Source: Psammoneis japonica
Lineage: Eukaryota
Direction: 5' to 3'
NCBI GenBank assembly: GCA_008632985.1
Contig: QPGO01000021.1
Span: 558,001-622,000 of the forward strand
Length of the DNA stretch: 64,000 nucleotides
In this document: in pieces, positions 11,968 to 64,000 of the stretch
How the letters are laid out: each line of letters starts with the position of its first letter
Position numbering within the stretch: the stretch's first letter is position 1
Program-made: the position numbers and the translations under genes
The notes under the pieces: generated by a model
The model's input: only the letters and a program-made list of their open reading frames with translations
What the model was told of the DNA's origin: nothing
The model's database searches: none

Positions 11968-12019
<52 letters not shown>

Positions 12020-12250
12020 GGCTCAACAGAAGGCACTTGTGCTTGGCAACTTCATTTTGACATGATCTGTTGCACTTTTTTGGTGGGTCAGCACAACAAA
12101 ATGACAACCCATCACATGTGGCTGGCAACTGTGCTGTGCCAATGCACGCCATCAAACAACCACAACAAATCAATGTTGACAACACTCATGCCATTTGCTG
12201 GTGGCATGAGACACAAACATGACCAAGAGTTCTTAAATGAGAGACTTGCG
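10450..12250 (-). mobile_element. Degenerate Penelope-like retroelement (RT remnant)
   Basis: Minus-strand fragments PQLCTAPKAHKKPRATHPIVSCIN..FSKWLD, DAKPLTANAASMHSNI, NGTAMG..ACMCA, VFLDLDI and AVAFSRLKNLQD match PLE RT motifs (PKxHK..RPIVS, DxxSMYTNI, GTAMG), with Tyr replaced by Cys or His. Confidence 0.8.
11972..12014. repeat. (CT)n microsatellite inside the Penelope remnant
   Basis: About 21 TC units directly visible. Confidence 0.95.
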
Positions 12251-17784: not shown

Positions 17785-19440
17785 GTCAATGCCCAGCAAT
17801 GGATCTCGATCAGTCTGATGCACTTGACACACCTGGCCCCACACACCAACAATGCACTGTTGTCAACTTCAGCTTGGTCAAGCTCATTGCTGTGCTGGGA
17901 ACTGGGAGAAAGCCACATCACACGGTGCTCCAAACAAGTTGATGCTCCAGAACATTGAAGCCAGCCACAGGAAAATTCCATAAGATCTTTTGAAATGAAC
18001 GAGGCAATGAGAAGAATGAAAAATCCAAGAAAAAACCCAAGGTGAGCAATGTGGGGGGCACCATCAAGAAAGAAAAGGCCTTTGAAGATGTTGGGGTGAC
18101 AAGCGCTCAAAATGGACATTTGATCAGCGAGACAAACTCAGCTGCAAAAGCACCTCATGCCAAGCCTCGTCAAGCTCAAAGTTCAAACAATTGGTCAACT
18201 TGACACAATTGCACCCACCTCCTGAATGCAAAAAATTTGCTGCCCATTCTGACACAACAACTTCTCTCTGTGTGCAGAGCTGGGCTGGGCAAAAAGTTGC
18301 CATGGGGAATGAGATGCTCCAAATCAGTTGCTGTCATGTGGCTTGAAGTGTTTCACCATGTGGGAGATTTTGATGAATGCACACTCCAAGCATGTTTGGA
18401 CTTGTGCTCAAGACCAAAGTTTGCACTCTCATCTGGAATTTGTGGTGGCTGCTCAGCTCTGCTTGCTGTTGTTTTTGAGATGAGAAAGAATGGCAGAGGC
18501 CACTGGAGGGTTGGCGTTGCACATCAGATCTGCGCGACAATGTGGAGTTGTTGCCATGTGGCCCTGACAGAAGGTTGTGCCCAGATTCTGCATTGGCAGG
18601 CAATGGACATGTGTCACAAAGGAGAGTCACACAGAACAAGTCCCCAGATGAAATGGCGCTGGTGCTTGGCTGCTGGCAGGAGGGCATGCACTGCTTTGGC
18701 TTGCTTCTGCCAAGAACTGCCACACTGTCTTTCCTTGCACACTTGAAAAAGAGTGCACCAGCCATGCAGTCAAGCAAGGCAGCTTCCGCAGGGCAAACGC
18801 CCAATTGAGAAATTCTTGTTGGCTGCATTTGAATGAGGTGGTTGGAGTTGATGACAGGTGAGGGAGGAAGGTGCATGAGTCAAGCTGGAGCTTTGCCTGC
18901 ACAAAAACTCTTGCAACAGAATGAGCTGAGGGCTGCACATTCAGAGGTGATGGTGGTGTGGCGTGTGTCAGAAGAGCTGAGTGCAAAAGAGGTGAAGGAG
19001 ACAGGCATGCTCAGATGGACAGCTGCCTTGCAAATGTGGAGTGAAGCGGAGTTGCTCAAAACAGTCAAGCTGCTGCTGCAGCCCAATGGCAAGCTGGTGC
19101 TCCAAATTCAAATGGCACAAATCACATGCCTTGCCAGAGCGCATTGATCTCCAAGCCAAGGGCTGCCCATTTGTTGTGTGGCAGGAGCATGAAACAAGGT
19201 TGGTGGCCTGGAACTGTGCGGGATTTGGCTCAAGAAGAGTGCAACAGAGTCAAGCACAAAAGAGCCAAGAAGGAAAGTTGCGCGGGACTTGGTTTTCTGG
19301 GCTTGTCAGGGAGGGCTGGATTGACTGCTTGGGTTGCGCTTGTGATCAGACACACCAGGTGCATGCTGGCCTCACATCATTGACATCATCAAAGGCTTGA
19401 GAGATGGGGGCAGCATCAAAGAAGATGACCAGCTCATCAG
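17785..19440. mobile_element. Degenerate repeat-derived block (TpA/CpG-depleted), family unresolved
   Basis: Starts just after a poly-G run at about 17744-17757; TA nearly absent; overlapping ORFs have no Tyr. Confidence 0.5.
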
Positions 19441-20886
19441 CCGCTCTGCAGATTTGGCACAAATTCAAACATGCAAATTTGAAATTTGATCAACTTCACA
19501 AAATTCCACATTGCCAAACCGAAAAATTGGTGAGAAAAAGGTTGAGTTGAGAGTGCAAGAAAGAGGAGTGAGGCAAAATGACAGCAGCAACAAAGCCAGC
19601 ACATGGCACCCAGAAGAGAGAGCCAATCGCCCCCACAATCAACAGCTCACCAATTCTGTGAGTTGTGAAATGCTGCGTCACTGCAGCATGCCTGGACTGA
19701 GCAGTCATGCCAAAATGAGAGAAAACAAAGTGAGTGACTCAAAAAAAACATTGGCACACAAGCAAAGTGGGGGTGTGAAAATGAATGACACACAACAGGG
19801 GAGGTTGGAAGCCACCACAAAAACCAGCAATGCAGACATGTTCGTCTTTTGCCAAACAATGTGTGCTCCTCTTGCGTTTTCATTCGCCACCTTGCAACCA
19901 GTTGAGAAACAGCAAAACCATGCATCGGTTGTTTGCAGCAGCCATCTTGCGAAGGCTCAAAGCAAGCTTCCAAAGCGGGTTTGCTTCTCTCCGCTTGTTT
20001 GTCGTCCGCAACACTCGCCGGCGGCGGCACTTGTCATCAGCAAAAACGCGAAAACTGTCATGATCATTTTTCCCCTGTGGGGTGGACAAATTCTGAGCCA
20101 CATCCTACAGCACTGACCATCCATTGTGCAAAAATTAGCGATGGCCGACCGACTGCACACAGGGCCTCTGTCTGTTCTGCTCCAGAGCAGCTTGCCACAA
20201 ATTCCAAAATGCAAACTTGGTCAATTTCACAAAATTCCACATTCCTGAACAGAAAAACAAGTGAGAAAAAGGACGAGTTGAGTGCAAAAAGTGGGGGGCG
20301 ACAATGCTGGCTGCTGGTGCCCCGGAATCCCCGAAGAAATCCAACAACCAAGAGCTCGCCAACTCTGTGAGTTGTGAAAATGCTGCGCGTCACTGCAGCA
20401 TGCCCAGACTGAGCAATTGTGACAAAAAGAGGGAAAAAGTGGATGACTCAAAAGAGCATTGGTGGCACACAAGCAAAATGGATGTAAAAAAAAAAGACAC
20501 ACGATGGGAGAGGTTGTTGGAATCCACAAAAATCAACAAAGACATGTCTTTTGCCACGTGTGCACTCCTCTTGCGTTTTGCATTCGCTGCCTTGTGACCA
20601 GTTGAGAAACGGCAAACCCACGCATTGGTTGTTTGCAGCAGCTGTCTTGTGCTGTCTTCTCTCAACGTCCGTGACACTTGCTGAAAGTTGATGTCGATAA
20701 AGAAAGAGCTTTTCAATCTGGAACAAGCTTGTTTGACATTGGTGCTGCACGCCGACGGCGGCACTTGTCATCAGCGAAAACTGTCATGACCATTTTTTCC
20801 TGTAAAATGGACAAATTCTACCCTACAGTAAGTACCGACCGTCCATTTTGGCAAAATCAGCGATGACCGACCGTGCGTAGGGCCTA
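19440..20886. repeat. Two tandem diverged copies (~720-730 bp) of a non-coding repeat element
   Basis: Colinear matches at about 19440-20170 and 20175-20886, e.g. cacaaaattccacatt, ctgtgagttgtgaaa.tgctgcg, ggcggcacttgtcatcagc.aaaac, and the ends gaccga..agggcct. Confidence 0.85.
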
Positions 20887-22288: not shown

Positions 22289-22469
22289 CTCGACGATTCA
22301 TTCTCTTGATAAGACAGATTAACATGTGGCTTGAACTTCAACTCCTTTTGTGGATCATTGTATGACAATCGACGTTGTTGCGGTGCTCATCAAAGCATCT
22401 CGTCTCGAACAATGGCGAAAACAGCACTGCACGGTAGTAAGAGGCACCATGCGCAGCAATCGCCCCCCC

Positions 22470-23610
22470 CCCAGCAGGCCCCATCACCGCACCACATTGT
22501 AGAGTGACATGACAAAATCGGTCCCACATCATTTTTTCACTGTGGCATTTTTCTCTCAAAGTCAAAAGACAGCACAACACCCACAGTTCACAAACGAGAA
22601 TTTCCATGGGATCAAGGTCAAGCAAATCAACAGCCACTGCGATTGTGCCAGTCAAACAGGAGACATCCAGTTGCTGCCTCAACTGGGTGGTGCATGCTCA
22701 GTTTGCTGCCAGTGTGTTGCGCGCAGGTTGTCAAACTGCAAAGTTGCATTCCTTGAAATTTGCACCATGTGCAACTGGGATCAGCACAAAATGAAGCTCA
22801 CCAAATTTGTCAGTTGGACTGTGGCACACTTCACCTTGAGTCATTTGGGTCATGGCATGAGACAGCCCTCCATTTGCACTGCCATCAGTTTCAACCATTG
22901 TGGTTGTTGCACTTTCACCCTGGCAGCAAGAAAACATCAAAGCTAGAGCTGAAACATTGAAAGCAACCCAGCTGGAGATGCACTCCAGCCCCAGGTGGGA
23001 CTCCATGTGAAGGGGGCTTGCAAATTCTGCACACAAGTTCCACGGCAGAATTGCCAAGCAATGAACACACGAGCGATTGCCAACAGAAGAAAAAGAGAGG
23101 CAATTTTGTGAGTGCATCATCTCCTCCTCCACACTCAAAGCACATCATTTCCAGTTTTCCTGGGTGTGTGCTTCAGACACCAAAGAATGCACCTGCCCAC
23201 TTTTGCTGCCACAAATGAAGAAAGCAGCAAGCCTTTGGCTTCTTCGCGCAAAGCAGGGAGTGCGAGCCGAAGCAATTTTGCAGAAGATGGCATGCAGAAA
23301 TGTGCATGCATGACATGCAGCACAAAACCCAAAAACTCTCATGTCACAGTGCCGAAGGGACCAGGGACTTGGGTTGAGAGCAGGTCGAGGAGAGCGAAGA
23401 GCCGAAAAGCTGAAGAGAGATCGATGGCAATGGCGCAGAAGAAGCCAAGGCCACACCAAGATGGTCCTCAACAGTGAAGGGGAGAGGATGAAAATGCCAT
23501 CATTGTTGAGTGAAGCAACAAAGAGTCATCCATCAGTGGAGGAGGCAGAGGGTCCAAGAAACTTTCATGCTGTGTTCAAAACCGCAAGCTCCACAAAAAA
23601 AAGTCGACAC
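22470..23610. mobile_element. Degenerate repeat-derived block between the GT47 paralogues
   Basis: Starts at a poly-C run (~22463); TpA/CpG depleted; ORFs within it have no Tyr. Confidence 0.5.
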
Positions 23611-23962
23611 CTACTGCGCCGATGCTGTGTGCGTGTCTTCCGCCTGGATGTGCCTTCTCCGCATCAGGATCACTCGCACTCCCAACTGGGAGGTCTGTAA
23701 GTGGTACGGAAGAAGACTGGATCACTCGCAATGGGTCTTCGGAAAACTTTCCCGAACTTTCCAGTCCCGCGCGGGAGAAAGGAATGAAGGTTCTTTTTCC
23801 CAATTTGAAATTTTCTTGGAACTCCCAAAGCCCGTGCACATCCTTTTGTCGACAACACTGTTTCAAAGAGCTAAGAGCTATCGATACCATTTACCATTTT
23901 ATCCGCTTCGTATTTGCTGTTGACCAAACACAATGCACGACGGAAGCCGTAGCCTACCGACT

Positions 23963-29587: not shown

Positions 29588-29980
29588 CGGTTGCTGCTTG
29601 CTGCTTGGCTGTTGCCAGTTGCCGGTTGCCGGTTGCTGGTTGCTGCTTGGTGATTGCTGGTTGCAGTTGCCGGTTGCTGGTTGGCGGTTGCTGGCTGCTG
29701 CTGGTTGCTGGTTGGCGGTTGCTGGTGGCTGGCGGCTGGTTGCCAGTTGACAGAGGTGCTGGTTGCCGGGGTTGCCGGTTGCTGTTTGCCGACAGCTGTT
29801 TGCTGGTTGCTGGTTGCCAGTTGCTGGTTGCTGGTTGGCGCCGGTTGCTGGTTGCCAGTTGGTGGTTGGCAGTTGCACATTGCTGGTTGGCGGTTGGCGG
29901 TTGGCGGTTGCCGGTTGGAGGTTGCTGGTTGCCGGTTGCTGGTTGCCAGTTGGCGGTTGCTGGCTGCAGTTGCCGGTTGA
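29588..29980. repeat. Tandem array of a 7-bp unit (gttgccg/gttgctg/gttggcg)
   Basis: Directly visible; begins right after a single N at 29587. Confidence 0.9.
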
Positions 29981-32100
29981 TTTTGTGGAGCCGCATCATC
30001 ATCAACCAGGAGCAGAGCCCCGCCATGCAGGCAGCAAGGTGACTAGAAGCAAGTGCAGAAGAAAAAAAGCAAAGTTTGGTGGGTGCTGAGAGAGTTCTCT
30101 TTGTCCAGCATGCAAGACTGGTCAGTGTCTGGGGCAAAGAAATGAGAAGTCTGCAAGCCAGTCAGATTCCCTGGGGCTCCCAGCACAAGATTGTGACTGC
30201 TCACAACAGGCACAGCAGAGGCCCAGCTGCCAAAAAAGAGAATTTCAAGCACTGGGCTGGAAACCTGCTTTTTGGGCCTCAACACTGCAGCTGGTCCCAT
30301 GTGTTGCCAACCGCATGCAAAGATCAGCAAGTGTGATCTTGGGCACACTGCAACACATCTTCACTGATGCAGTGTGAGATGAAGATCTTGCAAGCCAAAT
30401 TGTTGGGTGCATGGGTGCATCTTTTTGTCTCACATGGCACTTTGACATCAGCTGCACATTCCCAGCTTCTGCTTGGGTTTCTACGAAATTTATTGCACTG
30501 ACGTCACCCTTCTCAGGCAGTGTCATGTTGGCTCCAACAAGCCTGTTTTGCCCACATTTGCCAGCATGGTGCAACCTTGTCACAGCATGATGAGCAATGT
30601 TCTTCAGTGGAAAACAACGAGTGTCGAAGCCTTGTGGTTTGTGTGCTGGTTGTCATTTCTCACAATTTTCCATCATCTCAGAAAATTTCCACATGAGCTC
30701 CGGTGCAAATTCTGATCTGCTTTTTACACATCTCCTGTCAACTTCTGTCCCTGCCAATTGGTCTTCAATGCTGCTTCTTTTCTCTGTTGTTCAACCAAGT
30801 CTTTTAAAGCAGCTCCTCTGTTGCAGCCTTTTTTAGCAAGAACAAGAGTCATCCTTGGTGTCAGTTGACTGTCATCCATTTGCTGTGCACGCACCAGCAT
30901 TTCTGTGCAATTTTTAGCATTGTTTCCACATGTGACACGAATGTTGCACCACTGATGATCTGCGCTGCACATCTCCGGTCATCTTCTGTCCCCGCCAATT
31001 GGCCTTCAATTCCACTTCTTCTTTCTGTTGTTCAGCCAAGCCTTTTGCTTTTTGAGGTGAAAGCAACACCTCTGTTGTGGCCTTTTCTAGCAAGAACAAG
31101 AGTTTTCCTTCAGTGTCAGTTGACTGTTCTCCATTTGATGCATGCACCAGCATTTCTGTGCAATGTCTGGTGTTGTTTCTACATGCAATGAACATTTTTT
31201 TTCAACAACCCACCCGGCTCACCTTCAAGGCTCCCAGCTCCACACATCCAAGTCCTGTGCAATCTTTTCTTCAGTTTGCTCTCTGCTCTTCTCCCTCTCA
31301 CACCCATGTGCTGTTGTGTGTGTGTGTGATCTTCTCATGCTTGAAAGTTTTGACATTTGCTTTCTCAACCAAATCTGCTGTCACAATCTCTTTGCGAGTG
31401 TGTGAGAAAAAACAACTCATGTTGGCAGTCAAAAAGTGGGTGTGCAGTGCCACAAGATGAACTCAGCAGCCAGCACCCATCTGAGCTCCTTTGTGCTTAG
31501 ATGAACCTGGTTGATGCCCAAAATCTTCACTGCCCCACGCTCATGATGAAGCAACATGCAACATGGGCTGGTGGTGCACAGACCACCAGAGTGACATCCC
31601 CCACTGTGTCAACAATCTCAACACTGTGTGTGTTCCCTGGGCACAAGTTCAAGACATGGAAGAAATTGGTCTCATCCACAAGAGTTGCAAAACATCTCCC
31701 ATGTCTCTGTGTTTGCTGCACAGCTTCTTTGCTTTTCACAACTCCTCCATTTTTCCTGACACTTCTGTCAAAGCTGGGTGCATGCATGGTGTGCTCAAGT
31801 CATCATGCCTCAAGGCCCCAGGCTCTTCAACTTCTGCATTGAAGATCCTGTCGAAACATTTGATTCTCATGTGCTCCACACAATTTGGCCATGCCTTGCA
31901 ACTTTGGAGCCTGTGGAAGCAGGCCAAACAGCATTTGAAGCATGTCCTTTTGACAAGAAGGGTGAAAATTCCTGGTGGAAAGAGAGAGAGGAGTGGATTT
32001 GGTCCATGAAAGGTGAGAGTGAATCCATGCAGAATGATGCATCCTTGAGAAAGATGAGAAGAAGAACTAAAGGCTGAAGAGGCCAGGTGATGAGAGTGAA
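29980..32100. mobile_element. Degenerate repeat-derived block with an internal ~240-bp direct duplication (30727-30960 and 30968-31190)
   Basis: TpA/CpG depleted; cacatctcc.gtca.cttctgtccc.gccaattgg occurs at 30727 and 30968 with colinear downstream sequence. Confidence 0.55.
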
Positions 32101-32535
32101 CCAACTGCATCTGAATTGAGACCAAACTTTCAAAAGAAGGGACCTGAACCAGGGGCACCGAAATCGAGACCAAGACCTCAGAATAAGAAGGGGCCTGGTC
32201 GCGGAAAGGGAAAGCGTGCAAAATGCACAGAAGCCAAACGCACCAGAACCAAATCTCGGCGATTCTTCTAGCTAGAAGCCGGATGAAAAACCACTCAAAT
32301 CGAACGGAAAACACGAGGGCAATGTCAAAGGAACAACAAGCGACGAGGAGCAAACGAACAAGAAACCTCCGCGACGACGGAGAGAGAATGTTGTTAGCAA
32401 GGAGGTCCCTCCACCAAATGCGCAAGGGAAGCGTTTGGGCAAGGGGCTACATTATGGCAAGACGTCTAGCTGTATATTTTCAGAAACAGAATTGAATGGA
32501 AGATTCGTTGTTTCCTATACAATCAATCTCTGACC

Positions 32536-35131: not shown

Positions 35132-35327
35132 GTTTCCTTCATCTCAGTACCACAAAGCTATGAAAGAAAAGGGAGAGTTGTTTGTTTTAACCCAGAGTAA
35201 AAGAGGGGAAAGATCTGCCGGTAGATGTAGAAGATTTCCGTACTAGTTTATGCTTCTTCATAAAGAGTGACCTGCTTTGGGCCAAACTCCAGTTCACAGT
35301 GAATTCATCCATCATGAGGACAACAGT

Positions 35328-35512
35328 NNNNNNNNNNNNNNNNNNNNNNNNNNNNNNNNNNNNNNNNNNNNNNNNNNNNNNNNNNNNNNNNNNNNNNNNN
35401 NNNNNNNNNNNNNNNNNNNNNNNNNNNNNNNNNNNNNNNNNNNNNNNNNNNNNNNNNNNNNNNNNNNNNNNNNNNNNNNNNNNNNNNNNNNNNNNNNNNN
35501 NNNNNNNNNNNN
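35328..35512. other. Assembly gap (N run)
   Basis: Run of n. Confidence 0.99.
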
Positions 35513-38350
35513 TCAACACGACAGTCACCATTCTTCAGGATGAGGTTGCACAAGGCTGGAAGCTGGTGCTCCCAAAGGAGGTTGTGAACTCCATTCTTGG
35601 AGGAGTTGTTGTTGCCTCACTGGGATTCATTGCACAGTGCACAGCAATCATTCTGCAGGCATGGGGACACTGTGGTGAAACAAACAGGTTGACACATGAC
35701 CAGCCCTTCAATCTGACAAACGGCAGACATGGTCCTTGCTGAGGAACTCACCCCATGCTGATTCAGCTGGGCACTTCTGTGGCACATGCATCACATTGTG
35801 CACCTGTGCTCATGTTTTTCCAACAAGCACATCTTGCAAACTGCAAGGAAGGTTGACTGGAATTTGGCTCAAAGACACCTGCACCTGCACCCATCCTCCA
35901 CCATGCAAGCCCTCATGACCATTGGCGCCTTTGCCCTGTGCACTCTTTTCCTCGCTTTAGAGACACCACCAATGCCAGTCTGCAGTTGGATGTCAGCAAG
36001 CTCTTGTGCAACCTCAGCATCAATCTTGTCAGACACTCCTGCTTTGACCCATCCACACACTGCTCAAATTGTCTGCTGTTGATTGCCCACATGCCACCTC
36101 CACACCTCCGGTGCCTCATCATCACTGCCAGCAGAGTTGGCAGTCTTGGATTCTTTGCCTCCCATTTCTTGCTCATGCCCTGAGTTTGATGCACACACCA
36201 ACAACATGTTTGGTCCCATTTTGGAGTGCAGCTGTGAATGGGGCAGCGCCATTGTGCTGCTTGCATTTTGCATCTCCTTGGTCAGCCCATTTCACAGGTG
36301 GAGACAACCCCATGCAAAGGAGACTTGCTCTTCCTCACACCAAGTTTCTGGTGGCGGCAATGCCAGATGAGATCCAAACTTTTTTGGGTTTTCTCCTCAA
36401 CAACACTGGTGCTCTCTTTGTTGTGCTGCTGAGGAAAAAGGAGACAGCTTGGGTGGCCTCTGTCCACACTGCTGTTGCTCTGTTGCACATTGGCAAAGTC
36501 CTCCAGCTTGACTCCTCCCCTCGTTGGCCACCTCAACCACATTGCATCAGTCATTCCAGCAGCCTGGCACTTCCTTCTTAGAGGTTGCCTGTGTCAAGCA
36601 TTGCACGTCACTCAATGTGTCAAGGGAGCACCACATCTTGTCACCGGCTCAATCATGAGCTGACTTGACACTGTGGTTGGGTTTCTTCCATCATGCTGCC
36701 CTGGCAGTCAGCCTCAACATCTGGGGCAGCATGGTGTTGGGAATTGCCAACCCACCTCAACACTCCAAAATTTCTTGTGTGGTGCATCATGCACCAAATG
36801 AACCTGCTCTTGGGAAACCAGCTGATGGAGTCCTGCCATTTGCTCCTCCAGGACAACAGCACCTCCACCAATGGCCAGATGCAAAAAGCTGGCTTCAATG
36901 ATCGTGCCATCGTCATCCAGCTGGAGACAGGAAGGACACTGCCTGCACAGTCAACAGCTCCCAGGGAAGGTGATGAGCCTGATTTGCAGTTCTTTGCTCC
37001 AAGGCAACACCCACCTCTCCCACACACAACTGACTGACACATGTTCTCAGTCTGCGCACTTGCCACCCTCCCTGTGGGCTCCAACTGGACTTTGAATCCA
37101 TCCTCCACTGCCCAAGCTCACCTCACAAGTCATGATGCAGCTGCTTGACAATCCCATCAGCACCCAAGAAGGAATTGCTGCCACAGCTTCCCAGAAGCAA
37201 ACTTGCAATTGCAGCTGCTGTGCCCAGTTTCTTCACATCAATCTCAACAACAATTGTCCCTTGCTTGATGGCATTGACCTTTGCAACCAAGAAAAGTGCC
37301 TTGTTGGTGCCTTTGACTCTGCCATCATGCCAACACCATCCAATCCAGTGCAGGCACAAATTCAGCTTTGGTGCCATCATCTGGCAAAATTCATGCCACC
37401 ACTGATGCTGTGGCTGAGACCTGCTGGGCTCGCCACCACCCTTTTCCCACCCATCCACAATGAATCCAACAAGCTTTGCTGGCTTCTGCAAAAATGGCTG
37501 GAAAGGCTGCACAAATCCAGACAACTCTCCAGCAAAAATCTCAGAATGCTGTGGGTCCTCCTCTCCCAGTCATCCATTGACAGCACCAACCTTGTTGGCA
37601 AGGCTTGCTGCCAAACTCCTCACATGAGGACGAGAGGGCTTTCTTTTTTGCAACGCACTTGTGTGAACTCCTCTGAAAGTGTTGGGCAAGAAACAGCACA
37701 CTGTGCTGCTCACCACCCTTGCAAGCTTGTTGCAGCATTTCTTTTGCAGCCAATGCAAAAAGCCCTGCAAGAATGATCCTGAACTGTGCCCAGCTGACAG
37801 TTTTTCCATCACCGCTGCACTCCAGAAGAATGGTGAGAGGGGTGGGACTGCAGTGCAACACTGCACCCACAATCCACCCATGCCCTGTCAAGGCTCAGGT
37901 TGCTGTTGTTTGCTGCATCTTGTCACATCTGGGCACCAGCTGAAGCACCAGGTGCTCCACGCAAAAATCTGGCACAGCCACGGGCGCGCAGCACCTGGCG
38001 CCAGTGTCCCATCAAGTCCCTGCATCAGATGACTGACACAGAAGCAACACATGAGCCTGAAAGCAACACATGGGCCACAGCAAGCTCATTCCTTTCTTCC
38101 ATCAACATTGCACTGCAACATTGATGAGTTCGAGAGTGAGTTTTCGCTTGCAGCTCGCGCCGCCACCCACCCTTTGCGGCTCTCTGGCTGGAGCTCCAAA
38201 TCTGGGTTGCCTCAGACTTGGCTGGCTCCAGCTCGAGGTCTGATGCTGGTGGCCATGCCACAAACAACCAGAGAGCTAGTCCAGGAGTGCATCAGCCACC
38301 AAAGGAAAGCAGAGTCAAGAGCGACAGAGGGCAATCGACCCATCGATTGG
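35513..38350 (+). mobile_element. Degenerate tyrosine-recombinase (DIRS/Ngaro-like) retrotransposon
   Basis: RT-like remnants DEVAQGWKLVLP, RLTHDQPF, RKVDWNLAQRHLHL and QTFLGFLLNN; YR-like ADSFSIT..QKNGERG..QH.T..P.PC near 37790-37890; ends in a ~330-bp repeat. Confidence 0.65.
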
Positions 38351-38677
38351 GCAGTTCGTGTGTTGGGAGACATTTCCCCCCCTCCGCTCGCGGTGCTGCC
38401 ACATGCGCCCAAATCCAACGGATGAAAATTTCAAATTTCGCGGTAACCGACGATGTTCGTCGTCCATTTTACTGTACTGTAAAGTTGTTCAATGCACCCC
38501 ATCTAGAGGATATGTCAAAGAACCTGGATATTACGTATGTCATGCGGCATAGCATGGAATGTTCCGTGATTCATTCCAGCGATCATCGTAGCGCCATTTT
38601 ATCGATTATCGTCGTCAAAAAATCACAGTCTCAACGCAAACAACAACGTATTACTCTTCGACTTGCAACAAAGCGCA

Positions 38678-39946: not shown

Positions 39947-42660
39947 GCCAATCGATGGGTTGATTGCCCTCTGTTGCTCTCAACTCTGCTTTCCTCTGGT
40001 GGCTGAAGTGCTCTTGGACAAGCTCTCTGGTTGGTTGTGGTTCAGGGCCCCAGCCACCAGCACCAGACCTTGAGCTAGAGCTGGCCAAGTTTGGGGTGAC
40101 CCGGATTTGGAGCTCCAGCTAGAAAGCTGCAAAGGGTGGGTGGCATGGGCTGCAAGTGAAGACTCACTCTCAAACTCATCAACGTTGCAGTGCAATGCTG
40201 ATGAAAGAAAGGAATGAGCTTGCTGTGGCTTGCATGGTGCTCATGGGCTCATGCACTGCTTCTGCATTGGCTGTCCAATGCAGGGGCATGTCACAGAAGA
40301 CAACCTCTGCTGATGCAGGGAGAGGCACAGACCAGCACCATCTCTTTGTTGGTCTCAAATCTGTGCTGAGCAAACTTTGTCTTGTTTTCTCCACACTTTG
40401 CCACCAATCACAGAGTGCATTTGGTTGAGAACAAAATGTCCCTGAGCCATGAGTCTGATGCATGGGTGCATGTTGATGAGATCCTCTGCCACTGTTGGCG
40501 GAGGGGGGCATGTGGTGTTTTCTGTGCATGCAGTGCACAGCTCCTCTGTTGCGTGGGATGGTGGTGGCCATGAGGTTGCTGCCAATGTGGGTGGGTGGGA
40601 AAAGTGCTTTCCGTCTCCAGCAAGTCTTTGCTTGTCTGTGTTTCTCCAATTTGTGGGATGTTGTGAGCACTTGCTCCTCTCCAAGGCACCAAAGTTCTGC
40701 CTTTTGTGCAGCTGCTCTCATTTGCAGGGTTGCTGCTTCTTGTCAACACACCCACATTTCTGCAGGTCAGGGCCAAAGCAGAGCCCTTCCAAGGCACCAC
40801 ATCAGTGCAGCTGGCCCTCTTTCTCCAAATCTGATCTCATGCATTCCTCAACCTGTGGCCCTCCACTCCTTGTTGTCTGCTGAGCAAGCACAAGCTTGCG
40901 CGCAGCTCTGACCTGCCTGGGGGGCTGTGTGGAGAGAGAGACATGCCACAGCCTGCTTGAGCATTTGGCATGGGCAGTGCCAGACATGCACTCTGCACTT
41001 TTGGTGCTGTTTGCTCAGCATGGATTTCAGCTGGCACTTGTGTCTGACTTCCACTGCCCTCCTCTGTGCAGTCTTTGTGAGAGCCCTTTGATTTGCAAGG
41101 AGCAACAACCAAGACATTTGGGGCTTCTAAAGACAGATGCAGCAAGTCAGCCCCCCCCTTGGGCTGCACATTGGGTGCATGTGCTGCACATGCCAGTCTC
41201 AAGAACTGTGGGGAACAACAAGAAATTTCATGCACACTCATCATGCTTCAGCAAGAATGGCAAAGTTGCTGGGCCAAGTGCAGGGATCTTTCTGGCTTGA
41301 GTCACAAAAATTCACATGATCAACAATGGCCCATGGTGTGCCACTGTCACTGCTTGCACCTTGTGGTGCTTTCATCAATGTGCAACCTGGCCAATCATGG
41401 CGGGGCACAAAGCTTGCGATGTTTTTCATGCTGGTGGCTTGCTGGCACTGGTGGTGTGCCACTGTCTGCAAAAAAAAAGCTGACTGCTGGGAGCTCATTG
41501 TGCCAAACATTTGGGAGGGGGGTTGTTTCTGCAAGGAGGAGCCACTTTTGGGTTGCTTGATCAGTGTGTTGTCAACTTGAGCTGGAGAGGTTGGCACTCC
41601 CTCTTGCTTCTGCCAGCACACAAGTGAAGCTCAAAGCAGAGAGCATGGCAGCCAACAAAGAGAGCCAAGTTGTGGCAGGCATTTTTGCAGCAGACATTGT
41701 TGGGAAGGTTGTCACTTTGGCAATGAAGGAAAACCCAGACCATGAAAACATGTCCAAAAAGTGCTGGGATGCACTGCATGACATTTTTGCATTTCAGCAC
41801 TTGCTGCCCAACATGGGTCGCCCCATTTTTGTTGTTTTTCATTGCAGCCACCTGCAAATGATGGACTTCTTCAAGCACACAGCACTGCCAACATGCTGCA
41901 CCACAACTCTCTGACATGTGGGTCTTGTGGTCTCTCACCACACTGGTGCACATTTGAGGAAAGTTGCTTTTCTCACCACCTGTGCTGGAAAGAACCCCTG
42001 GTCTCTCTGTTGTTTGGTGCCATGCTTCAAATTTTTGGAAAGTTGGGTCTGCTCCTTGTCTTCTGAAACTGTCAAGAATGCACAGCAAGAGGCAAAGCAG
42101 CAAGTCTGGCCTCTCAGTGACTTCTCTGTGTGGTCCAGTGTTTGCCAAATGACACCCAGAGCTGGGCATGGCTCCCAGCTTTCTCTCTCCATCACTGAAG
42201 CAGCACCCAAAGGCTCAGGGGAGTTTTGTGGAAACACCCCCAAACCACTGACTTCCAACTCCCAACACAACTTCAACTGCCCCAGGCACAGTTGCAGGCG
42301 CACATGTCTTTGTCATGTGCTGCAAAAAAAAGAGCACACACGAGTGAGGAGAGAGACAGCATCTGCCCTGCACATCAGTGGGCACAAGAAGTGGGGCAAT
42401 GCAGGCAGCACTCTCAGGCTTTGACAAACCATTGTTGTTGCAACACCAGGAGCTCCGCCAGAGCTCTGCAGATGGCCCAAATTGTTCCTCCCGCCCCCGG
42501 CCCACCACCACACACTCGGTCACTCCTTGTTTGCATGCTTCTGGCTCTGGGCCCAGGTCCCAACATTGGGATCTCAGTCAATCTTTAGCAATTGGGTGGG
42601 CACAGTCTCAAACTGCTGGCTTCGAACTAACTCTGCTCCAACTGTCCTCTCCTGGCAGCC
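39947..42660. mobile_element. Degenerate repeat-derived block starting with an inverted copy of 38017-38350
   Basis: 39947-40288 is the reverse complement of about 38017-38350; the remainder is TpA/CpG depleted. Confidence 0.6.
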
Positions 42661-53079: not shown

Positions 53080-54159
53080 ATGGAAGAGCCAGAACTTAGC
53101 TCGACGTCGCTGTCTTCCAACGAAGAGTCGTCTTCGTCTCCCCCCTCTCCAGCCACACCACCACCGGCTGAATCATCTCCGCCTACTACAGCAGCTGCAT
53201 CGTCTTTGGGTACTAATATGCAAGCCATGATTGTGGAAGAAAAGTCCTATCATGATTTGGAGGCATGGCTATCAAAATTATCCGTCGGAACGCCTCTTGC
53301 CGAAAACGAAGTCAAATTGTTGTGTGAAATGGCTCGTGCGACGCTCCTGTCGGAATCCAACGTGCAGCCCGTATCGGCTCCCGTCACGGTATGCGGTGAC
53401 ATTCACGGTCAATGGCACGATCTCATGGAACTCTATCGTATCGGAGGCAGTGCGCCCGATACGAATTACCTATTCATGGGTGATTATGTCGACCGTGGCT
53501 ATTATTCCGTCGAGACGGTGAGCATGTTGGTGTGTCTCAAGGTGCGTTATCCCGATCGGGTGTACTGTCTGCGAGGCAATCACGAGTCGAGACAAATCAC
53601 ACAAGTCTATGGCTTTTATGACGAGTGTGTGCGCAAATATGGATCGGCCAATGTGTGGAAACTCTTTACCGACCTCTTTGATTACTTTCCTCTGACGGCC
53701 TTGGTGGAGCACTCGATCTTTTGTCTGCACGGTGGATTGAGTCCTTCGATTGATACACTCGATCATGTCCGTCAATTGGATCGTGTGCAGGAAGTCCCAC
53801 ACGAGGGACCCATGTGTGATTTGCTTTGGTCGGATCCAGACGAACGGTCCGGATGGGGCATCTCTCCTCGGGGCGCGGGGTTCACCTTTGGTCAGGACAT
53901 TTCGCAGCAGTTTAACGAACGCAACGGACTCGAGTTGGTCGGACGGGCGCATCAACTCGTCATGGAGGGTTACAATTGGAGCCATGAACAGTCGGTTGTT
54001 ACAATCTTTAGCGCGCCAAACTATTGTTATCGATGTGGTAATCAAGCCGCTATTATGGAGGTGGATGAAGAATTGAACAAGACCTTTTTGCAATTCGATC
54101 CTGCTCCGCGTCGGGGAGAACCGCATGTTACGAGAAGAACACCCGATTACTTTTTATAA
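53080..54159 (+). CDS. PPP2CA: Serine/threonine protein phosphatase 2A catalytic subunit
   Basis: [21 protein letters not shown] and [11 protein letters not shown] motifs and the diagnostic C-terminus TPDYFL; S/P-rich N-terminal extension. Confidence 0.96.
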
Positions 54160-57339: not shown

Positions 57340-58630
57340 CATGCTTCATGTCCACAGCCCGCCCTCCATCGCATCTTGAATCTATCTCTAGAAGTACCAT
57401 CCGCAGCCATGTGGCCTTCCTGCCTGCACCTCATCGGTTTTCCTCACATCACATCTGTCAAGAAAACATCAAGACATCTCAAGCCACCAGCAGATCTCAC
57501 ACTGCAGTTGCAGTCATTTTCCCAGCTTGCTCTTTGTTCCACTTTGTGGCAACAACGTCCTCTCAGAATGAACGCTGATGAGAAAAAAGAAAAGAGAGAG
57601 AATTTGCTTGAGCTTGGGACAAAAGCCAGGCTCATGAAAGAAAAGAAAATTGCCACTGTGCTTGCAAAATTGGCAACAGGGAGCACCGCTGTTTGTTTGA
57701 CTTCAAAACTTGTCTCTTGCTGTGCTTGAATTTTTTTGCTTTTGTGCACTGTTGTGTGTTGTTGTGCAGGTTGAGCAGGGAGCAAGGCAGAGCTGCACTT
57801 CCACACTTTTGCTTTGTTGTCATCACACTGTTGGCTGACTGACAGCTGCACATTGGTTGCTCCATGTGCTCTGGAAACTGTGCACATTGAGCACAAAATG
57901 ACATTTTTGTTCACTCGTCCATCAGCCACAAAGGCGTGTCAAACTCAACCAGGAGTTTGACGATGGCTCAAAGTGTGCTTGCACTGATGCCTGCTCTGTT
58001 TCACTGGAGAGCACAGCACTGATGAAGTGATGTTGTGTGACAAGGATTGGCTTTGCAATGTGGGCTCACCAGTTGCAGCACTCAACTGGGCCAGAGATGT
58101 TCAGCCACTTCAAAGATCATTTGCACAATGATGATGCCAAGGGAAAATCACCAAGCACTGCCACTGGCAGGGTGGCTGTGCATCAGCCTGACCACATGAA
58201 GCCATGCAATCAATGTGCTTGTGCTGCCTGAAACTTCCAGCTCATGACCTTGCAAAAGCATGCATGTGCCCACTTGCAAGAAGCTGCATTTGGTCAAAAC
58301 CCTGTCACACCTGTGGAAAACACCCAGCATTGAATTGAAACTTTTGCAGCTGACATGCAGCATTGGATCAAACAGATGAGTTCAATGAAAATCATGAAGA
58401 TGAAGCCAACTGCCACAAAAATGTGCCCGCAACAATTTCTCTCATGCTTCTGCCAACAATCCCACCCAGTCGCTCCTGGGCACCTTCTCTTTTTCTTTGC
58501 TTTTGATGAGCCAGAACTGCTCAAGTGCTTGTTTTGAGCTGCCCAAGATGCCAAATTGCCCAACCAAAATGCTGCAGCTGCAGCAGCTTCAGTTCAAGGA
58601 CACACAGTTGAGAGCATTGACAGAGGCAAG
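57340..58630. mobile_element. Degenerate repeat-derived block (TpA/CpG-depleted), family unresolved
   Basis: Practically TA-free over ~1.3 kb; ORFs within it have no Tyr. Confidence 0.5.
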
Positions 58631-60229
58631 AGATCCCTAAAATGGGAAAATACCCCTGACAGATTAATTTTGTCCCCTCACAGATTAGTCGTAAAATAGG
58701 AATCCAAGACTCAGCGTGGGTTCCTTGTCGTTCGCGGGACTCGTCGTCCCCTCCCCCGCGGTCGGAAACTTGTGACATACATTTCTACGTCAAACCACGT
58801 ATGTACGGACCCACGCGATAACAACACCGGCTGCAATCGACCGCGACAAACACGAACCACCTGGTGGTCCGTGTGCATTTTTGGGTGCACACGAACCACC
58901 TGGTGGTTCGTGTGCACCCTACGCAAAATGCTGCGTAGATTTGTACCGAATAAATCTGAGTACTGTAAATCCGACGTAGGATCTACGTGTTTGTACCACT
59001 CAACACTTGTCCACCGAGCCGGCAGTCTGTGCCGGCCGTCGTGACAAATATTTTATGTCAAAGAAAGAGTTCGTCAGGGCCGGCGAACAACACCCCACTA
59101 CGATGCGACTGGTATAAAATGTACGTAAATGCACAGGAACCAGCATGTGGTTCGTGTGCAAATTAGAGCTCGTGAAAAATAAGCAGGGATATGGGCAAGA
59201 CACGCAATGGCGCGTTCGAATCCATTTTATGACGGCAATTGTCAATCAATCATGACACAAGTCAATGTAGTCGATAATGTTGATTGAATGTGATCTATAA
59301 CATAAAAATAAGATGAAACATGGTAGCTTATGTGCAGAATGCTAGCACAACAGATTGTTTGTCGTGAAAAGTGCTGTTCTTGTGTCGTTTCATCACAGAT
59401 GCAAATCACAAGGCGACTGAAGTGGTGGCTAAGGCAAAATCAGAACCGTGTATGGCTAATGAAAATATGGTGGATTGAATGGTCACGTTTTTTCCTCCCT
59501 TCTACGTGTCTCATGTGCAGAACACAGCGGATCGTTTTGTCATGCTTGTGTTGTGTGGCCACAAATGCAAGGCACAAGTCATCTACAGTGAAGGCTAAGG
59601 CCGCAGCAGAACCATGTTAGATTGATGTTAACATGGAGAATTTAATGGAAAAGCTTGTTCCTCCTAATTCCACCAGAAGGGGGCGCATCGCGTCGATGTG
59701 TCGATGCATCGGTCATGGTCGTCCCAGGTGGTGGATTTGCACGTGGCGAAGGTGCCACTAACTTGGCATGCAGCAACGTAGAATCTTGCTGCTTGCAACA
59801 GAAGATTGTCTGGTTAAATCGACAGGGAGTGGAATTTCATTGGCCTTTTGCCAATTGAAGAAGTTGAAGAAGCAGATTCTGAAAAAGCAGATTCCCAAAA
59901 TTTTTTTAATCTGTGGCGGGACCGACTTGGTCTGTGAGGAGTTGGTGCCCCCCTAAAATGTTGTTGTGATTTTCACAAACAACTGTCCTTTGGCACAATG
60001 TTGTCAGCAAATGCATGATCTGCTGCAAGCCTTGGAAAAATTTTGCACTGCACTGTTGCTGTCTGGCATGTTTGCTTGCGTCATGGCATTGCCGCATGTC
60101 CTTTTCTCAGGGCTTTGTGCCAGCACTTTTTCATTTTGTGCAAAAGCGCTGAAGCTCATTTGCATCATCCTTGTTGGTGCTGTCATTGCAGTGAGCTTGT
60201 GTGCAATGCTTGTTGTTGTTCAACAAACA

Positions 60230-60800
60230 ACTTGGACCCAGGGCTGGTGTGGCAAGCTGGTCCTGTGCCAGAGTGAGGTGCATGGTTGGCTGCTCAGGCT
60301 GAAGCTGTGGCATGGATTTGATTGGACCATTTGCAACCACCATCAAGCCAGAGCTCAACATGCTCACATGCAATGACAACACAACTGGCTTGACAGAACT
60401 GGTGTGTGCATTGATGACAAAATGTTGCAGTGTGCTGCCAACAAATTTTGCAATCTTTGGTTGTCTCCTTGCTGCCTCAGACCAAAAATTGCTGCGCCGA
60501 TCACAGCAGTGGTGAATTTGTTGGTTGGGAACATTTCACATGTTGTTGAATCAAGCAGGCATGGCAGATGTGTGTCAACTGTGAACTCTGCAATTCTCAA
60601 ACCAGTGCAGTGTGTGAAAGAATGCACCAAACAGCAGCCAATGTTTTGTGAGTGCTGCTCCCATTGCTGACCACCCTCCTTCTGCTGCAAACCTTCAACG
60701 TGCAAGTGAAATTGCAGACAATGCTTTGGCAGCTCTTTTCCACAAGAAAGAATGCACTGTCCTGTTTGTTCTCAAAATCTGTGGTCATTTCTTTGAGTGT
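60230..60800 (+). mobile_element. Degenerate Ty3/gypsy-type integrase remnant
   Basis: Fragments DLIGPF, LNMLTCNDNTTGLTELV, DHSSGEFVGWE and PQTSAVCERMHQTAANVL resemble the rve core (DxxGP, LT.ID..T, DNG.EF, PQ.N...ER). Confidence 0.75.
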
Positions 60801-62435
60801 CCCAGTGTTTTGATGAAATGTGACTTTTGACCTTCCATTCAATTCAAACCAGCAACACTGTCAAGTGCTTGTTGACAACAGTCTTGACCGCAGGGCTCAA
60901 AGCAGTGTGATCCTTTGACCACCAAGTTGGGCAAGATGTTTTGACCAAGTCTGCTTCTGACCCTGCCAAGTTGGGGGCTTGAGCAATTGGTCCATTTGAG
61001 GTGCTGCAAGTCCATGTCAATGGGGCCATTGTCTCAGCTTTGCATGGGCACCACACATCATTGAATGGATTGGTGTTTGTCAAGTGGTGTCATGTTGGAA
61101 ATGATGGGCTTCTTCTCAATGTCTGGGTGGCTTGAAGCATGGCACACAGTTCCTTGCACCATGGGGGGAAGAGTGGACAACTTCAGCCAACTGCACTTCA
61201 TGTGCAGATGGCACCTGCTCTGACATGATGTGGCATGTGCTGACAGATGTGCCAGATGTCAGGGTCAGAAGCATGTGAGGGGTTCAGTGGCAGCGGCAGG
61301 CCCTTTTCAGCTCTTCTCACAAATGCCAAGACATTTCAGGCTGGGTCTTGCAAATCACTCACTCCAATTTGTGGCAAGTGTGGGGCCACAAAAAAAAAAC
61401 ACTGGGCTCTGCTGACACAAAAAAAACACTGAGCTCTGCTGGCACAGAGTGCTTGTTTTGCCAGAAGCCCTCACTTTGTTCAGTGCTTGGCAGCGGCCAC
61501 TCACACAGAATGCCTGTGTGCAAGGTTTTGCAACCATGCATCTTTGTGAACAGCAGTCTTGCTTGCTTGTTGGGTTGCACGTGCTGTGGCTAGAACAATG
61601 GCTGGTGCTGCTTTGCTTCTGTTTTCCCAATGCTGTGTTTTGGCTGGTGCCAGGAGAAACAGGCTCTGGCTGTTTTTGAGTCATCTTGGGACAGAGCTCT
61701 GCCAACTTGGTGCAAGGTGTTGACCAAAAATTCACCTGGTGGCTTGTTTGCACAATGTTCCAAAAAAGAGACACTGGTGGTGGGTTGATTTCCCCGAGTT
61801 GATGCCATTGCATCTTCCCTGCTCTTTCTGTTTCACTCAACAATGATCTGTGCAACATTTTTGAAAAAAATGGCACACCCAGCATCTCCAACCAAAACAA
61901 TGTTTTTCTCCAACCCAGCTCATCTCACCCTTTTTTGCATCTTTTTGTCAATGGCAAATCTGTGATTTGTCTGGCCAAATTTTGACCACACCATTTTCCT
62001 TTGCAGCTTGACCCAGAAACAAAAACAAGGTTGCAGACCACATTGCATTTGTGCCAGGTGTGAGCTCTTGTCATGCTGCAACAAGGAATCATGGCACAGC
62101 AGCAGACCATGCTTCAATTCCTTGCAAGTGCTGCTCTTTGACTGCATTTTCCACCCTGCTTTTTCTTTTTACAAGATCTGCATTGTTCTCCACTGAACCT
62201 CATGGCAGAGTCAGAACTGAGCTCAGCATCACTGTCTTGCAATGAAGAGAGTTGTCTTCATCTCATCCCCCTCCTTCCATGCCACCACTGGCTGAATCAT
62301 TTCCACCCACAGCCATGCTGTCCTCATTTTTGAGCCATGTGCAAGCCAAAATGTGGAAGGAAAGTCCTGTCATGACTTGGGGACACACAACCACTCAATG
62401 CTCTTGTCTCAAAGCATGATGTGCAGCCCACATTT

Positions 62436-62639
62436 TGGGTGTCGCCACTCACAAAGAGAGCTGCAGTGTGGCAGTCTGTCTGCACGACAGTTTCCACTCT
62501 GTGCACATTTTGTGCCATCATCTGTCCCCACCACCCCCCGGCTGGAGGTGGGAGGGAGGGACAACAGTGCAAAACAAGCACAGAAACTGTCCCACAGACA
62601 GATCTCCACTGCAGCTCTTCTTGCAAGTGGCGACACCCA
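62436..62639. mobile_element. 204-bp MITE with ~55-bp TIRs and probable ATTT target-site duplication
   Basis: tgggtgtcgccact..gagctgcagtg..gacagtttc pairs with gaaactgtc..cactgcagctc..agtggcgacaccca; attt at 62432-62435 and 62640-62643; absent from the intact gene. Confidence 0.85.
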
Positions 62640-63426
62640 ATTTGCTTTTGTCACAGCATGTGGCCAGACAGTTGCTGCAATGGCGCAATCTCATGGAAGT
62701 CTGTTGCACATTGGAGGCAGTGTGCACCCAATGTAAGCTGTTTGTTCATGGGTGATTGTGTCAACTGTTGCTGTTGTTTGGTCAAGGCAGTGAGCATGCT
62801 GGTGTGTCTTGAGGTGCATCACCCCGATCAGGTGAGTTGCTTGCAAGGCAGTCATGGGTCAATTCAAATGACACAGCTCTGTGGCTTTTTGCAACAAGGG
62901 TGTGCAGAAATGTTGATCAGTCAATGCATGGAAAGTCTTCATCAATCTCTTTGATTGCTTTCCTCTGCTGGCCTTGGTGGTGGAGCACTCTGTGTTTGTC
63001 TGCATGCACCGCATCAATCAAATTGGGTTTTGTGCAGGAAGAAGTGCCACATGAGGGACCCACATGAAATTTGATTTCATCAGATCCAGACAAACCGCCT
63101 CACCTTTTGTCAGGACATTTTGCAGCAGTTGGTTCAATGAATGCAATGGACTCAACTTTGGGCACATCAATCATGTCGTCATGGAGGGTCGCAATTGGAG
63201 TCATGATCAGCGTCCTGCTGCAATCCTTGGCACGCCAAACCAGTGTTGTTGATGTGGAAATCAAGCTGCCATTGTGGAGGTGGATGAAGAATTGAACAAG
63301 ATTTTTTTGCAATTCGTTCCTGCTCCTCGTTGGGGAGAACCGCATGTTGCAAAAAGAAGGCCCGATTGCTTTTTATAATCAGAGCAAGAAACCAAGCAAT
63401 GACTGTGGAATGACAAAAGAAAATGT

Positions 63427-63908
63427 CGTGCTGCGGTCTAATTTAAAATGGCTCGCATTTCCCGCACTTCACCGTGTCATTTTGACCTGCCTCGGAACAC
63501 CCCCGAACACCCATGCGTTCGTCAAACCCTCACGCACAGGGGCTGTTAGACGGCTGTGAGAGCTGCACATTTGGCGCTTCAAATGCCACTCATCGACCTG
63601 AGCCCTGTTGTCAGGTCGAAAAAACCGCTAATTTTCGCTGGGGTCGGGCTTCTTATGGGAGATTAGCGGTAACTTTCTGGGAAATGCCGACAAGTGGCAT
63701 TTGACTGGCTATTGACATATCTACAGTCGTTAAGGTAAAAGTCGCGCATGGTCATACCTGTCGTTTAAGCATTCTAGGGTGTCTGGCGAACGGACAAAGT
63801 TCGACCGATCGCTGAAATTTTTTTTTGCGAACGCGCGCGCATTTACTACGATGCATCCGGGTTATTTTTATAAAAATTACGAGCTCCCAAAAAACAGACC
63901 GCAGCACG
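63427..63908. mobile_element. ~480-bp TIR element inserted in the 3' flank of the PP2A copy
   Basis: cgtgctgcggtct (63427) pairs with agaccgcagcacg (ends 63908); the flanks on both sides match near-contiguous sequence at about 54200-54240. Confidence 0.8.
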
Positions 63909-64000
63909 TAGATCCATCCTTAATGAAGTGATGAGACAAGTCAAAACAGAATTGGAGTGAATTCTTTTGATGTTTCCTTCATAGTGTGAGTCTTTGTGGT

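Follow-up and report, generated by a model that had tools for sequence, protein, structure and literature searches.

A 64,000-nucleotide stretch of the genome of the diatom Psammoneis japonica (GenBank assembly GCA_008632985.1, contig QPGO01000021.1, positions 558,001 to 622,000 of the forward strand; hereafter the window) contains kilobase-scale intergenic tracts that have lost nearly all of their TpA and most of their CpG dinucleotides. One of these tracts holds a decayed copy of the gene for the catalytic subunit of protein phosphatase 2A (PP2A), of which an intact version is present in the same window. We consider that this pattern is best explained, with a probability of about 0.7, by two context-specific transition processes in kilobase-scale non-genic DNA, together with some inferred steps that concern the agents. 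One process converts TpA into TpG or CpA (A:T>G:C) at the DNA level, and the other converts CpG into TpG or CpA (G:C>A:T) in the same stretches. Their joint effect is that nearly all palindromic pyrimidine-purine (YpR) steps have become TG or CA at a constant G+C content. The host-gene duplicate that forms the PP2A copy landed in, or became part of, such a purged stretch. The loss of CpG would be due to ordinary deamination of 5-methylcytosine (5mC) in methylated silent DNA, and the loss of TpA would be of the same kind as that of Bigelowiella natans, that is, a locally targeted, probably enzymatic hypermutation guided by chromatin. The whole analysis is based on one window, one rooted pair of gene and copy, and 24 strand-informative TpA events.

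Substitutions in the decayed PP2A copy

The protein encoded by the intact gene (Table 1) matches the Pfam family Metallophos (E = 6e-42) and, over residues 58-359, human PP2A C-alpha (E = 8e-172). The segment that contains the gene (52962-54212) is of normal composition, with observed/expected (o/e) ratios of 1.15 for CpG and 0.65 for TpA. The decayed copy is 71-74% identical to this segment by blastn and has 16 CpG and 4 TpA left; the gene segment has 89 and 51. The flanks common to gene and copy begin at ~52962 on the 5' side and reach at least 54308 on the 3' side, where 63920-64000 is 84% identical to 54226-54308 and retains 3 TpA. These common flanks indicate that the copy is not an old paralogue that was already poor in TA, a source that the earlier note on this DNA, made from the letters alone, had named as fatal to its reading and that is hereby ruled out. 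Where codons with TA or CG changed in the copy, the Tyr and Arg residues that they encode in the gene are identical in human PP2A. Hence, the gene carries the ancestral state, and the direction of change can be read from the pair, as the earlier note had maintained.

A global alignment was made between 52901-54330 (gene and flanks) and 62021-63430 plus 63906-64000 (a 480-bp insertion being removed). Columns closer than 7 columns to a gap were dropped, as were those not in a 15-column window of which 80% or more were matches or transitions, and 787 columns were left. In these columns, 24 of the 34 TpA sites of the gene were replaced by TG (16) or CA (8) in the copy, 3 were unchanged and the others had become TT (2), AA (2), GA (1), CG (1) or AG (1). 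CpG was lost in the same DNA, where 37 of 50 sites were converted into CA (24) or TG (13), with 6 sites unchanged and 7 with other fates. Calculated per base, transitions amounted to 27/68 (0.40) at TpA and 39/96 (0.41) at CpG, against 25/322 (0.078) at other A/T and 31/260 (0.119) at other G/C positions. The rate at TpA bases clearly exceeds that at the other A/T bases (Fisher p = 5e-10), whereas a rate no higher would have refuted the earlier note by its own criterion. This confirms that TpA is lost by A:T>G:C changes confined to the region, far more often than other A/T bases change (0.40 versus 0.078), and that this loss, beside the decay of CpG, drives the sequence towards TG/CA. The hand count previously given for 53965-54152 was exact, all 10 TpA sites being changed (6 to TG, 2 to CA, 1 to CG and 1 to AA). 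The sequence examples quoted with it are present, and about half of the CpG sites of this sub-region are indeed changed, 5 of the 11 scored ones remaining unchanged.

The bases themselves were supported by public run X1, which contains 91% of the sampled words of 60001-64000. One k-mer contig from this run (3,592 letters, depth 66.9) spans 59866-63456 and departs from the window at 2 letters and 1 gap, and every site in it is fixed as TG or CA. The two differences that lie in the block, 60901 A>G and 61803 T>C, are not located at TpA, although one of them is a TpG/CpG difference. The depth was 53.9 over the PP2A gene region and 54-66 in neighbouring normal DNA, that of the purged block being no lower. 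A strand-dependent miscall or conversion would split the k-mers and halve the depth, and neither effect was seen. This indicates that the loss of TA and CG is not a basecalling artefact. It is therefore highly improbable that modified bases were miscalled, or were chemically converted during library preparation, and then carried into the assembly, even though X1, the only run with the stretch, has no library type on record and may itself have supplied the assembly. The N gaps of the window are of the kind typical for scaffolded short-read assemblies, and the copy has also acquired indels and transposon insertions, which further argues against such an origin.

Two elements interrupt the copy and its 3' flank. 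The 206-bp inverted-repeat element at 62435-62640 is absent from the gene and has 4 CpG and no TpA. The miniature inverted-repeat transposable element (MITE) at 63427-63908 contains 38 CpG and 21 TpA in 482 bp and was left unmutated by the hypermutation; its k-mer depth in X1 is 1,470-3,340, versus ~55-67 for single-copy DNA. The homology between copy and gene (62081 versus 52962-52985) starts no more than ~25 bp from where a transcript-like contig of run X2 (52985-54746) begins. Given this closeness, the copy could be a retrocopy of the intronless mRNA instead of a DNA duplication; its 3' limit lies beyond the end of the window. Run X2 provided transcript-like contigs over genes and none on 56801-63600, which was not used as evidence of silencing. 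A 243-bp unit is repeated 3.4 times (90% matches) at 54662-55511, just downstream of the PP2A gene, and part of this array is present in X1 as two diverged versions of equal depth.

Purged blocks and behaviour of the TpA process

Purged blocks were defined across the window as DNA with no more than 4 CG+TA per 300 bp. Nine blocks were obtained, all of them intergenic, with a total of 17,839 bp (27.9% of the window). The o/e ratios in the blocks are 0.13 for CpG and 0.03 for TpA, as compared with 0.99 and 0.59 in normal DNA. CA and TG are raised (1.89 and 1.81), ApT (0.79) and GpC (1.30) are not depleted and the G+C content is unchanged (0.47-0.52). If the blocks were at steady state, removal would exceed creation ~60-fold for TpA and ~15-fold for CpG. 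A Pfam search with the 99 block-derived open reading frames (ORFs) of 90 aa or more gave no family above cut-off, a test without power since the ORFs derived from PP2A were also matchless. The one SWIM-finger match (E = 0.003) was below the cut-off, and beyond the PP2A copy no content of the blocks was recognisable by this same powerless test.

The two depletions coincide in place and differ in extent. When 630 overlapping 300-bp windows (100-bp steps) were scored, 154 were low in both dinucleotides, none was low in CpG with normal TpA and 8 were low in TpA with normal CpG (r = 0.76). TpA-poor DNA totals 20,174 bp and CpG-poor DNA 15,421 bp; 5,311 bp are poor in TpA only, versus 558 bp poor in CpG only. 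This indicates that the CpG loss is nested inside a wider domain of TpA loss. Thus, the TpA process acts on a domain wider than that of CpG decay, and genes and young insertions are spared. Margins with loss of TpA only were located at 19140-20802 (48 CpG and 4 TpA in 1,663 bp, as compared with 25 CpG and 1 TpA in the 2,105 bp of block 17780-19884), 23074-23697 (19 CpG, 1 TpA) and 37981-38443 (22 CpG, 1 TpA), each of which faces the next gene at its 5' end. At several other block edges, those towards gene 3' ends among them, both dinucleotides change sharply; the left edge of block 9239-12334 is a sharp one, at ~9300. A fourth candidate margin, the TpA-free stretch 29228-29974 beside block 29955-32199, was discounted, as it corresponds to 7-bp and 18-bp tandem repeats.

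The TpA process hits individual sites on either strand and leaves no long same-strand tracts. In the nine blocks, TG and CA follow each other in random order, with runs-test z values from -1.9 to +1.2, the same range as in 11 normal segments. Runs tests of the labelled events in the copy did not reveal significant same-strand tracts either (p = 0.62 and 0.22). Strand concordance between TA and CG events of the copy was found in 26 of 40 pairs within 20 bp (p = 0.10; up to 0.26 in the concordance tests), and a scan for regional switches gave p = 0.16, neither of them significant. Purine changes on the + strand predominate in the copy when TpA and CpG events are pooled (40 versus 21, binomial p = 0.02). 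A>G changes depended on the 3' neighbour of the adenine, with 9/13 at TAC, 10/21 at TAT, 4/11 at TAG and 4/23 at TAA. Adenine followed by C (and next by T) is preferred, and adenine followed by A is spared. Within single TpA sites, mutation had struck the adenine before C in 7 of 8 informative cases (p = 0.07) and the adenine before A in 3 of 15 (p = 0.035). Block-wide tetranucleotides behaved alike: five of the six independent flank classes shift as predicted by the order C, T over G, A, with no difference between G and A.

None of the 102 ancestral TG/CA sites of the copy is now TA, against C>T changes at 24 of 161 CpC/CpT sites (Fisher p = 7.5e-6). Double switches between TG and CA were found at 5 sites, which is what an intermediate TA or CG would give. 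Such TpA as ordinary mutation would have made during the decay of the copy was removed, so that either the removal lasted through the decay or nearly all of the change came in a burst. In the inverted pair 39954-40290 / 38013-38344 (80% identity), double switches between TG and CA affect 12 of 59 TG/CA sites.

Three young insertions in or beside the block with the PP2A copy, the 58645-59950 element and the two MITEs (63427-63908 and 56760-57278), remained untouched, with normal composition and high copy depth. This suggests that the process acts in episodes or only on certain chromatin, or else that it would be slower than the age of the insertions. The 1.3-kb element at 58645-59950 is enclosed by a 10-bp target-site duplication, CCCTAAAATG, at 58635-58644 and 59951-59960, contains internal hairpin repeats and shows high copy depth in X1. 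The k-mer depth of the two MITE-like elements in X1 reaches ~5,500, and the one at 56760-57278 adjoins the upstream side of the gene at 55478-56773.

Known systems and competing explanations

The earlier note knew of no described system with these properties. This is no longer tenable, since TpA hypermutation was reported in 2026 in a preprint on mutation-accumulation lines of B. natans (Mettrop et al., bioRxiv 10.64898/2026.01.13.699255). According to the available text of that preprint, 231 of 302 nuclear point mutations were located in two integrated viral regions, and 230 of those 231 were A>G or T>C, all at TpA. The de novo rate of TpA>TpG/CpA in silent integrated viral DNA, from giant viruses and virophages, is given there as ~6e-7 per site per generation, ~1000-fold above background and in some lines only, and an ADAT2-like adenine deaminase is proposed. 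CpG and diatoms receive no mention in the main text, as far as it was available. No report on TpA loss or hypermutation in diatoms was found in the literature searched, in which the B. natans preprint was the sole relevant work.

The two cases share A:T>G:C changes at TpA that produce TpG or CpA depending on the strand, in particular regions only. They also share the long-term footprint that the available text describes, TpA being low and CpA+TpG high in clusters of 1-kb windows; 20 of the 64 1-kb windows here pass the 5%-tail thresholds of B. natans, using our own o/e measure. Neither process is repeat-induced, the target being single-copy there and the block being at single-copy depth here, and neither is apparently constitutive. 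They differ in lineage, a chlorarachniophyte there and a diatom here, and in degree, the TpA o/e being 0.03 over 17.8 kb here versus 0.45 in the nucleocytoplasmic large DNA virus (NCLDV) region there, as given in the available text.

Fungal repeat-induced point mutation (RIP) resembles the present case in that non-genic or duplicated DNA is irreversibly inactivated by context-specific transitions, with a strong dinucleotide footprint. Ascomycete RIP turns CpA into TpA, so that TpA becomes enriched, whereas in the blocks TpA is destroyed (o/e 0.03), CpA and TpG are enriched and no TG/CA site of the copy (0/102) has become TA. In addition, the parent PP2A gene is intact here and high-copy MITEs are unmutated, and the block around the copy, at single-copy depth, measures ~4.7 kb without its insertions, versus 1.35 kb for the duplicated segment. 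Decay by 5mC deamination, as in vertebrates and plants, resembles the CpG>TpG/CpA half of the pattern and its restriction to non-genic DNA. Its occurrence here is plausible, because only transposable elements are methylated in Phaeodactylum, also a diatom, and diatom transposons carry CpG methylation (PMC12344493, available text). However, it does not account for the loss of TpA, and CpG-poor DNA is nested here in a wider TpA-poor domain. The earlier note was thus right in that neither 5mC deamination nor fungal RIP explains the TpA loss.

With regard to the chemistry at TpA, a conversion of adenine into hypoxanthine in DNA by a TadA/ADAT-like deaminase is possible, although we rate it somewhat short of an even chance. 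The natural substrate of TadA is U33-A34-C35, and the T-A-C preference observed here recalls TadA-type enzymes. Deaminase editing of nucleic acids likewise includes A>G changes with a requirement for a 5' T (U), and a preference for a 3' C is described for a TadA-derived editor with a YAC context (Y, pyrimidine; PMC13109818, available text). A general Pfam scan, limited to this window, did not detect any deaminase among the 17 long ORFs outside the purged blocks. ADAR and APOBEC enzymes leave same-strand clusters, and the substrate of ADAR is RNA; here, by contrast, both strands are affected in random order in DNA that does not look transcribed. RNA hyperediting of the ADAR type via a retrocopy was rejected, because the 16 TA>TG and 8 TA>CA changes are interleaved without forming tracts and the non-homologous DNA around the copy is equally affected.

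One important question is whether both losses were produced by a single mutator, that is, one enzyme or repair pathway that flips the base at CpG and TpA steps in silent chromatin, in which case the CpG loss would not be 5mC decay. The co-location of the depletions (154 windows low in both, none low in CpG alone, r = 0.76), the restriction to the two YpR palindromes and the + strand purine bias over both kinds of event (p = 0.02) agree with this proposal, and for enzymes of the ADAT2 type, deamination of A as well as C in DNA is reported (bioRxiv 10.64898/2026.01.13.699255, available text). We regard it as unlikely, since the TpA loss extends 5.3 kb beyond the CpG loss, including the margins that keep 48, 19 and 22 CpG, and since the 3' end of the copy keeps 5 of 11 CpG where 10 of 10 TpA were changed. 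Furthermore, the hypermutations of B. natans are A:T>G:C in 230 of 231 cases (same preprint, available text), and neither the concordance of TA and CG strands (26/40, p = 0.10) nor the regional scan (p = 0.16) reached significance. Error-prone patch repair, in which T:G mismatches from 5mC deamination would recruit non-canonical mismatch repair and a polymerase similar to DNA polymerase eta (Pol eta) would misinsert G opposite T at WA motifs (W, A or T), as in the second phase of somatic hypermutation, is quite unlikely. Pol eta does yield A>G at WA motifs, and by this mechanism the decay of CpG and the mutation of A:T would be linked locally, in keeping with their co-location. Nevertheless, ApA is not a hotspot, with A>G at 11/106 ApA and 14/216 CpA/GpA versus 27/68 TpA bases (small numbers). 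The TpA-only margins lack CpG loss, transversions at TpA bases are few (6/68) and B. natans shows the TpA spectrum without a C>T component (bioRxiv 10.64898/2026.01.13.699255, available text). Among the three mechanisms put forward in the earlier note, Pol-eta-like repair is hence the one that fits worst, whereas a deaminase is compatible with the 3'-neighbour preference.

The thymine of TpA might instead be the modified base. A TET/JBP-like dioxygenase would oxidise it, together with the 5mC of CpG, to 5-hydroxymethyl- or 5-formyl-pyrimidines, and T>C and C>T changes would then arise on the same strand. Such oxidised pyrimidines mispair, and in the 40:21 bias TA>TG goes together with CG>CA, both being changes of the pyrimidine on the (-) strand. 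This explanation is nonetheless very unlikely: locally the strand coupling does not reach significance, and the preference of the adenine for its 3' neighbour accounts by itself for the bias of the TpA sites. The probability that selection, biased gene conversion or descent from a TA-poor paralogue acted in place of targeted mutation is close to negligible. The copy is a broken pseudogene that carries the untranslated flanks of the gene, GC-biased conversion would give neither CpG to TpG/CpA changes nor specificity for TpA, the G+C content of the blocks is unchanged and the substitution contexts contradict it.

Several points weigh against the explanation by two processes that we prefer. The target in B. 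natans is viral, whereas the only target here whose origin is known derives from a host gene; CpG decay accompanies the TpA loss here (37/50 sites), whereas there is no G:C>A:T excess there. A constitutive, domain-wide process would be expected to have hit the three insertions of normal composition in or beside the block. Eighty metagenome loci with XRN2 relatives (596,088 bases) did not contain any block poor in both CG and TA; TpA-poor stretches were present in 6 of the 80 loci, all of them CpG-rich and with 59-73% G+C. Either the trait is not general or this sample of loci is too gene-centred to show blocks. The 3'-neighbour tests comprise 24 events only, and the block-wide flank table takes normal DNA as a proxy for the ancestor, from which its class totals differ markedly. 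Run X1 may be the sample from which the window was assembled, which makes it technical support and not an independent specimen. Finally, the parts of the proposal that refer to enzyme, methylation and expression are inferred.

The signature is therefore not undescribed; what is new is its presence in a diatom, the host-gene target, the saturation and the co-located CpG decay. TpA-directed hypermutation has so far been known from one preprint and one chlorarachniophyte, where it is read as a defence against integrated viruses. Its signature in a diatom, a member of a group of major marine primary producers, indicates that it is not peculiar to one species, and the decayed PP2A gene indicates that a viral origin is not required of the target. 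This is a saturated case in which ancestral and derived states stand side by side in a host-gene duplicate. The order TAC > TAT > TAG > TAA provides a first hint of the preference of the agent and a prediction for candidate deaminases, and the differing extents of TpA and CpG loss separate the two processes. More tentatively, and with doubt outweighing belief, it may be proposed that diatoms carry an enzymatic, chromatin-targeted system of DNA adenine editing (TpA>TpG/CpA, with TAC and TAT preferred), related or analogous to that of Bigelowiella. Its domain would include and exceed CpG-methylated DNA, and it would irreversibly erase duplicated or non-genic DNA, as a RIP-like defence of opposite chemistry that would be widespread in algae of the SAR group (stramenopiles, alveolates and Rhizaria). 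If so, a quarter or more of a gene-dense region can be rewritten by such a defence. There are also practical consequences, since DNA free of TA lacks TAA and TAG stops, so that gene finders call or extend spurious ORFs in it, and repeat or homology searches are blind to purged DNA, as evidenced by the PP2A-derived ORFs that fail in Pfam.

Features of the window

The purged blocks, the PP2A gene with its copy, and the associated elements are collected in Table 1.

Table 1. Purged DNA, PP2A sequences and inserted elements in the window (positions are those of the 64,000-nucleotide stretch).
Feature	Position	Strand	Remarks
Purged block between two convergent genes	9239..12334		24 CpG, 9 TpA and 714 TG+CA in 3,096 bp
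Purged block with TpA-poor, CpG-bearing margin	17780..20802		Block 17780-19884; margin 19140-20802, faces 5' end of gene at 21008
Small purged block with TpA-only margin	22439..23697		Margin 23074-23697, faces 5' end of gene at 23933
Purged block called in two pieces	29955..32199		Pieces 29955-30804 and 30977-32199; called by CG+TA density
Purged block (to 37986) with TpA-only margin	35242..38443		Margin 37981-38443, faces gene at 38678; N gap 35328-35512
Purged block	39954..42497		First 340 bp repeat 38013-38344 in inverted orientation; 14 CpG and 3 TpA in 2,544 bp
Intact intronless PP2A catalytic-subunit gene	53080..54159	+	ORF of 359 aa; ancestral-state reference for the decayed copy
Left part of the older purged block that holds the PP2A copy	57403..58644		9 CpG and 1 TpA in 1,242 bp; TG+CA 293
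1.3-kb non-autonomous transposon-like insertion that splits the block	58645..59950		36-nt imperfect terminal inverted repeats; 70 CpG, 54 TpA
Right part of the purged block, PP2A copy included	59951..63426		27 CpG and 6 TpA in 3,476 bp; TG+CA 834
Decayed PP2A copy with 5' and 3' flanks	62081..63426	+	Broken by indels and the 206-bp inverted-repeat element
Small inverted-repeat element within the copy	62435..62640		34-nt arms, 88% complementary
MITE of normal composition in the 3' flank of the copy	63427..63908		18-nt terminal inverted repeats, 89% complementary
3' flank of the copy, resumed past the MITE	63920..64000	+	Only partly mutated; ends at the window end

The region 17780-20802 was searched for a tandem array and none was found. 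A tandem duplication of ~700 bp (19450-20160 versus 20190-20870) lies upstream of the GT47 gene, and both of its copies are TpA-poor. At 20802-20806, the proximal copy reads TAAAA where the distal one (20076-20080) reads TGGGG, four A/G differences in a row outside a TpA context.

The genes of the window are dense and intron-poor. Two pairs of tandem paralogues, GT47 exostosin-like (21008-22288 and 23933-25033) and BTB-domain genes (43040-44263 and 44773-46239), indicate that local gene duplication is common in the region. The ORF of a WD40 protein at 28147-29880 (- strand, 577 aa) carries a false N-terminal extension of ~217 residues that runs through TA-free tandem repeats (a 7-bp unit at 29589-29979 and an 18-bp unit at 29251-29549); the true start is probably the ATG near 29174. 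An XRN2-type 5'-3' exoribonuclease is encoded at 748-4400 (- strand) in two ORFs, 2589-4400 and 748-2271, and a frameshift or a single intron presumably separates them. Among named sequences, this XRN2-like protein is best matched by those of diatoms, with 57-63% identity for Bacillariaceae, Pseudo-nitzschia, Proboscia and Stephanocyclus, and the match from Corethron is 50% identical.

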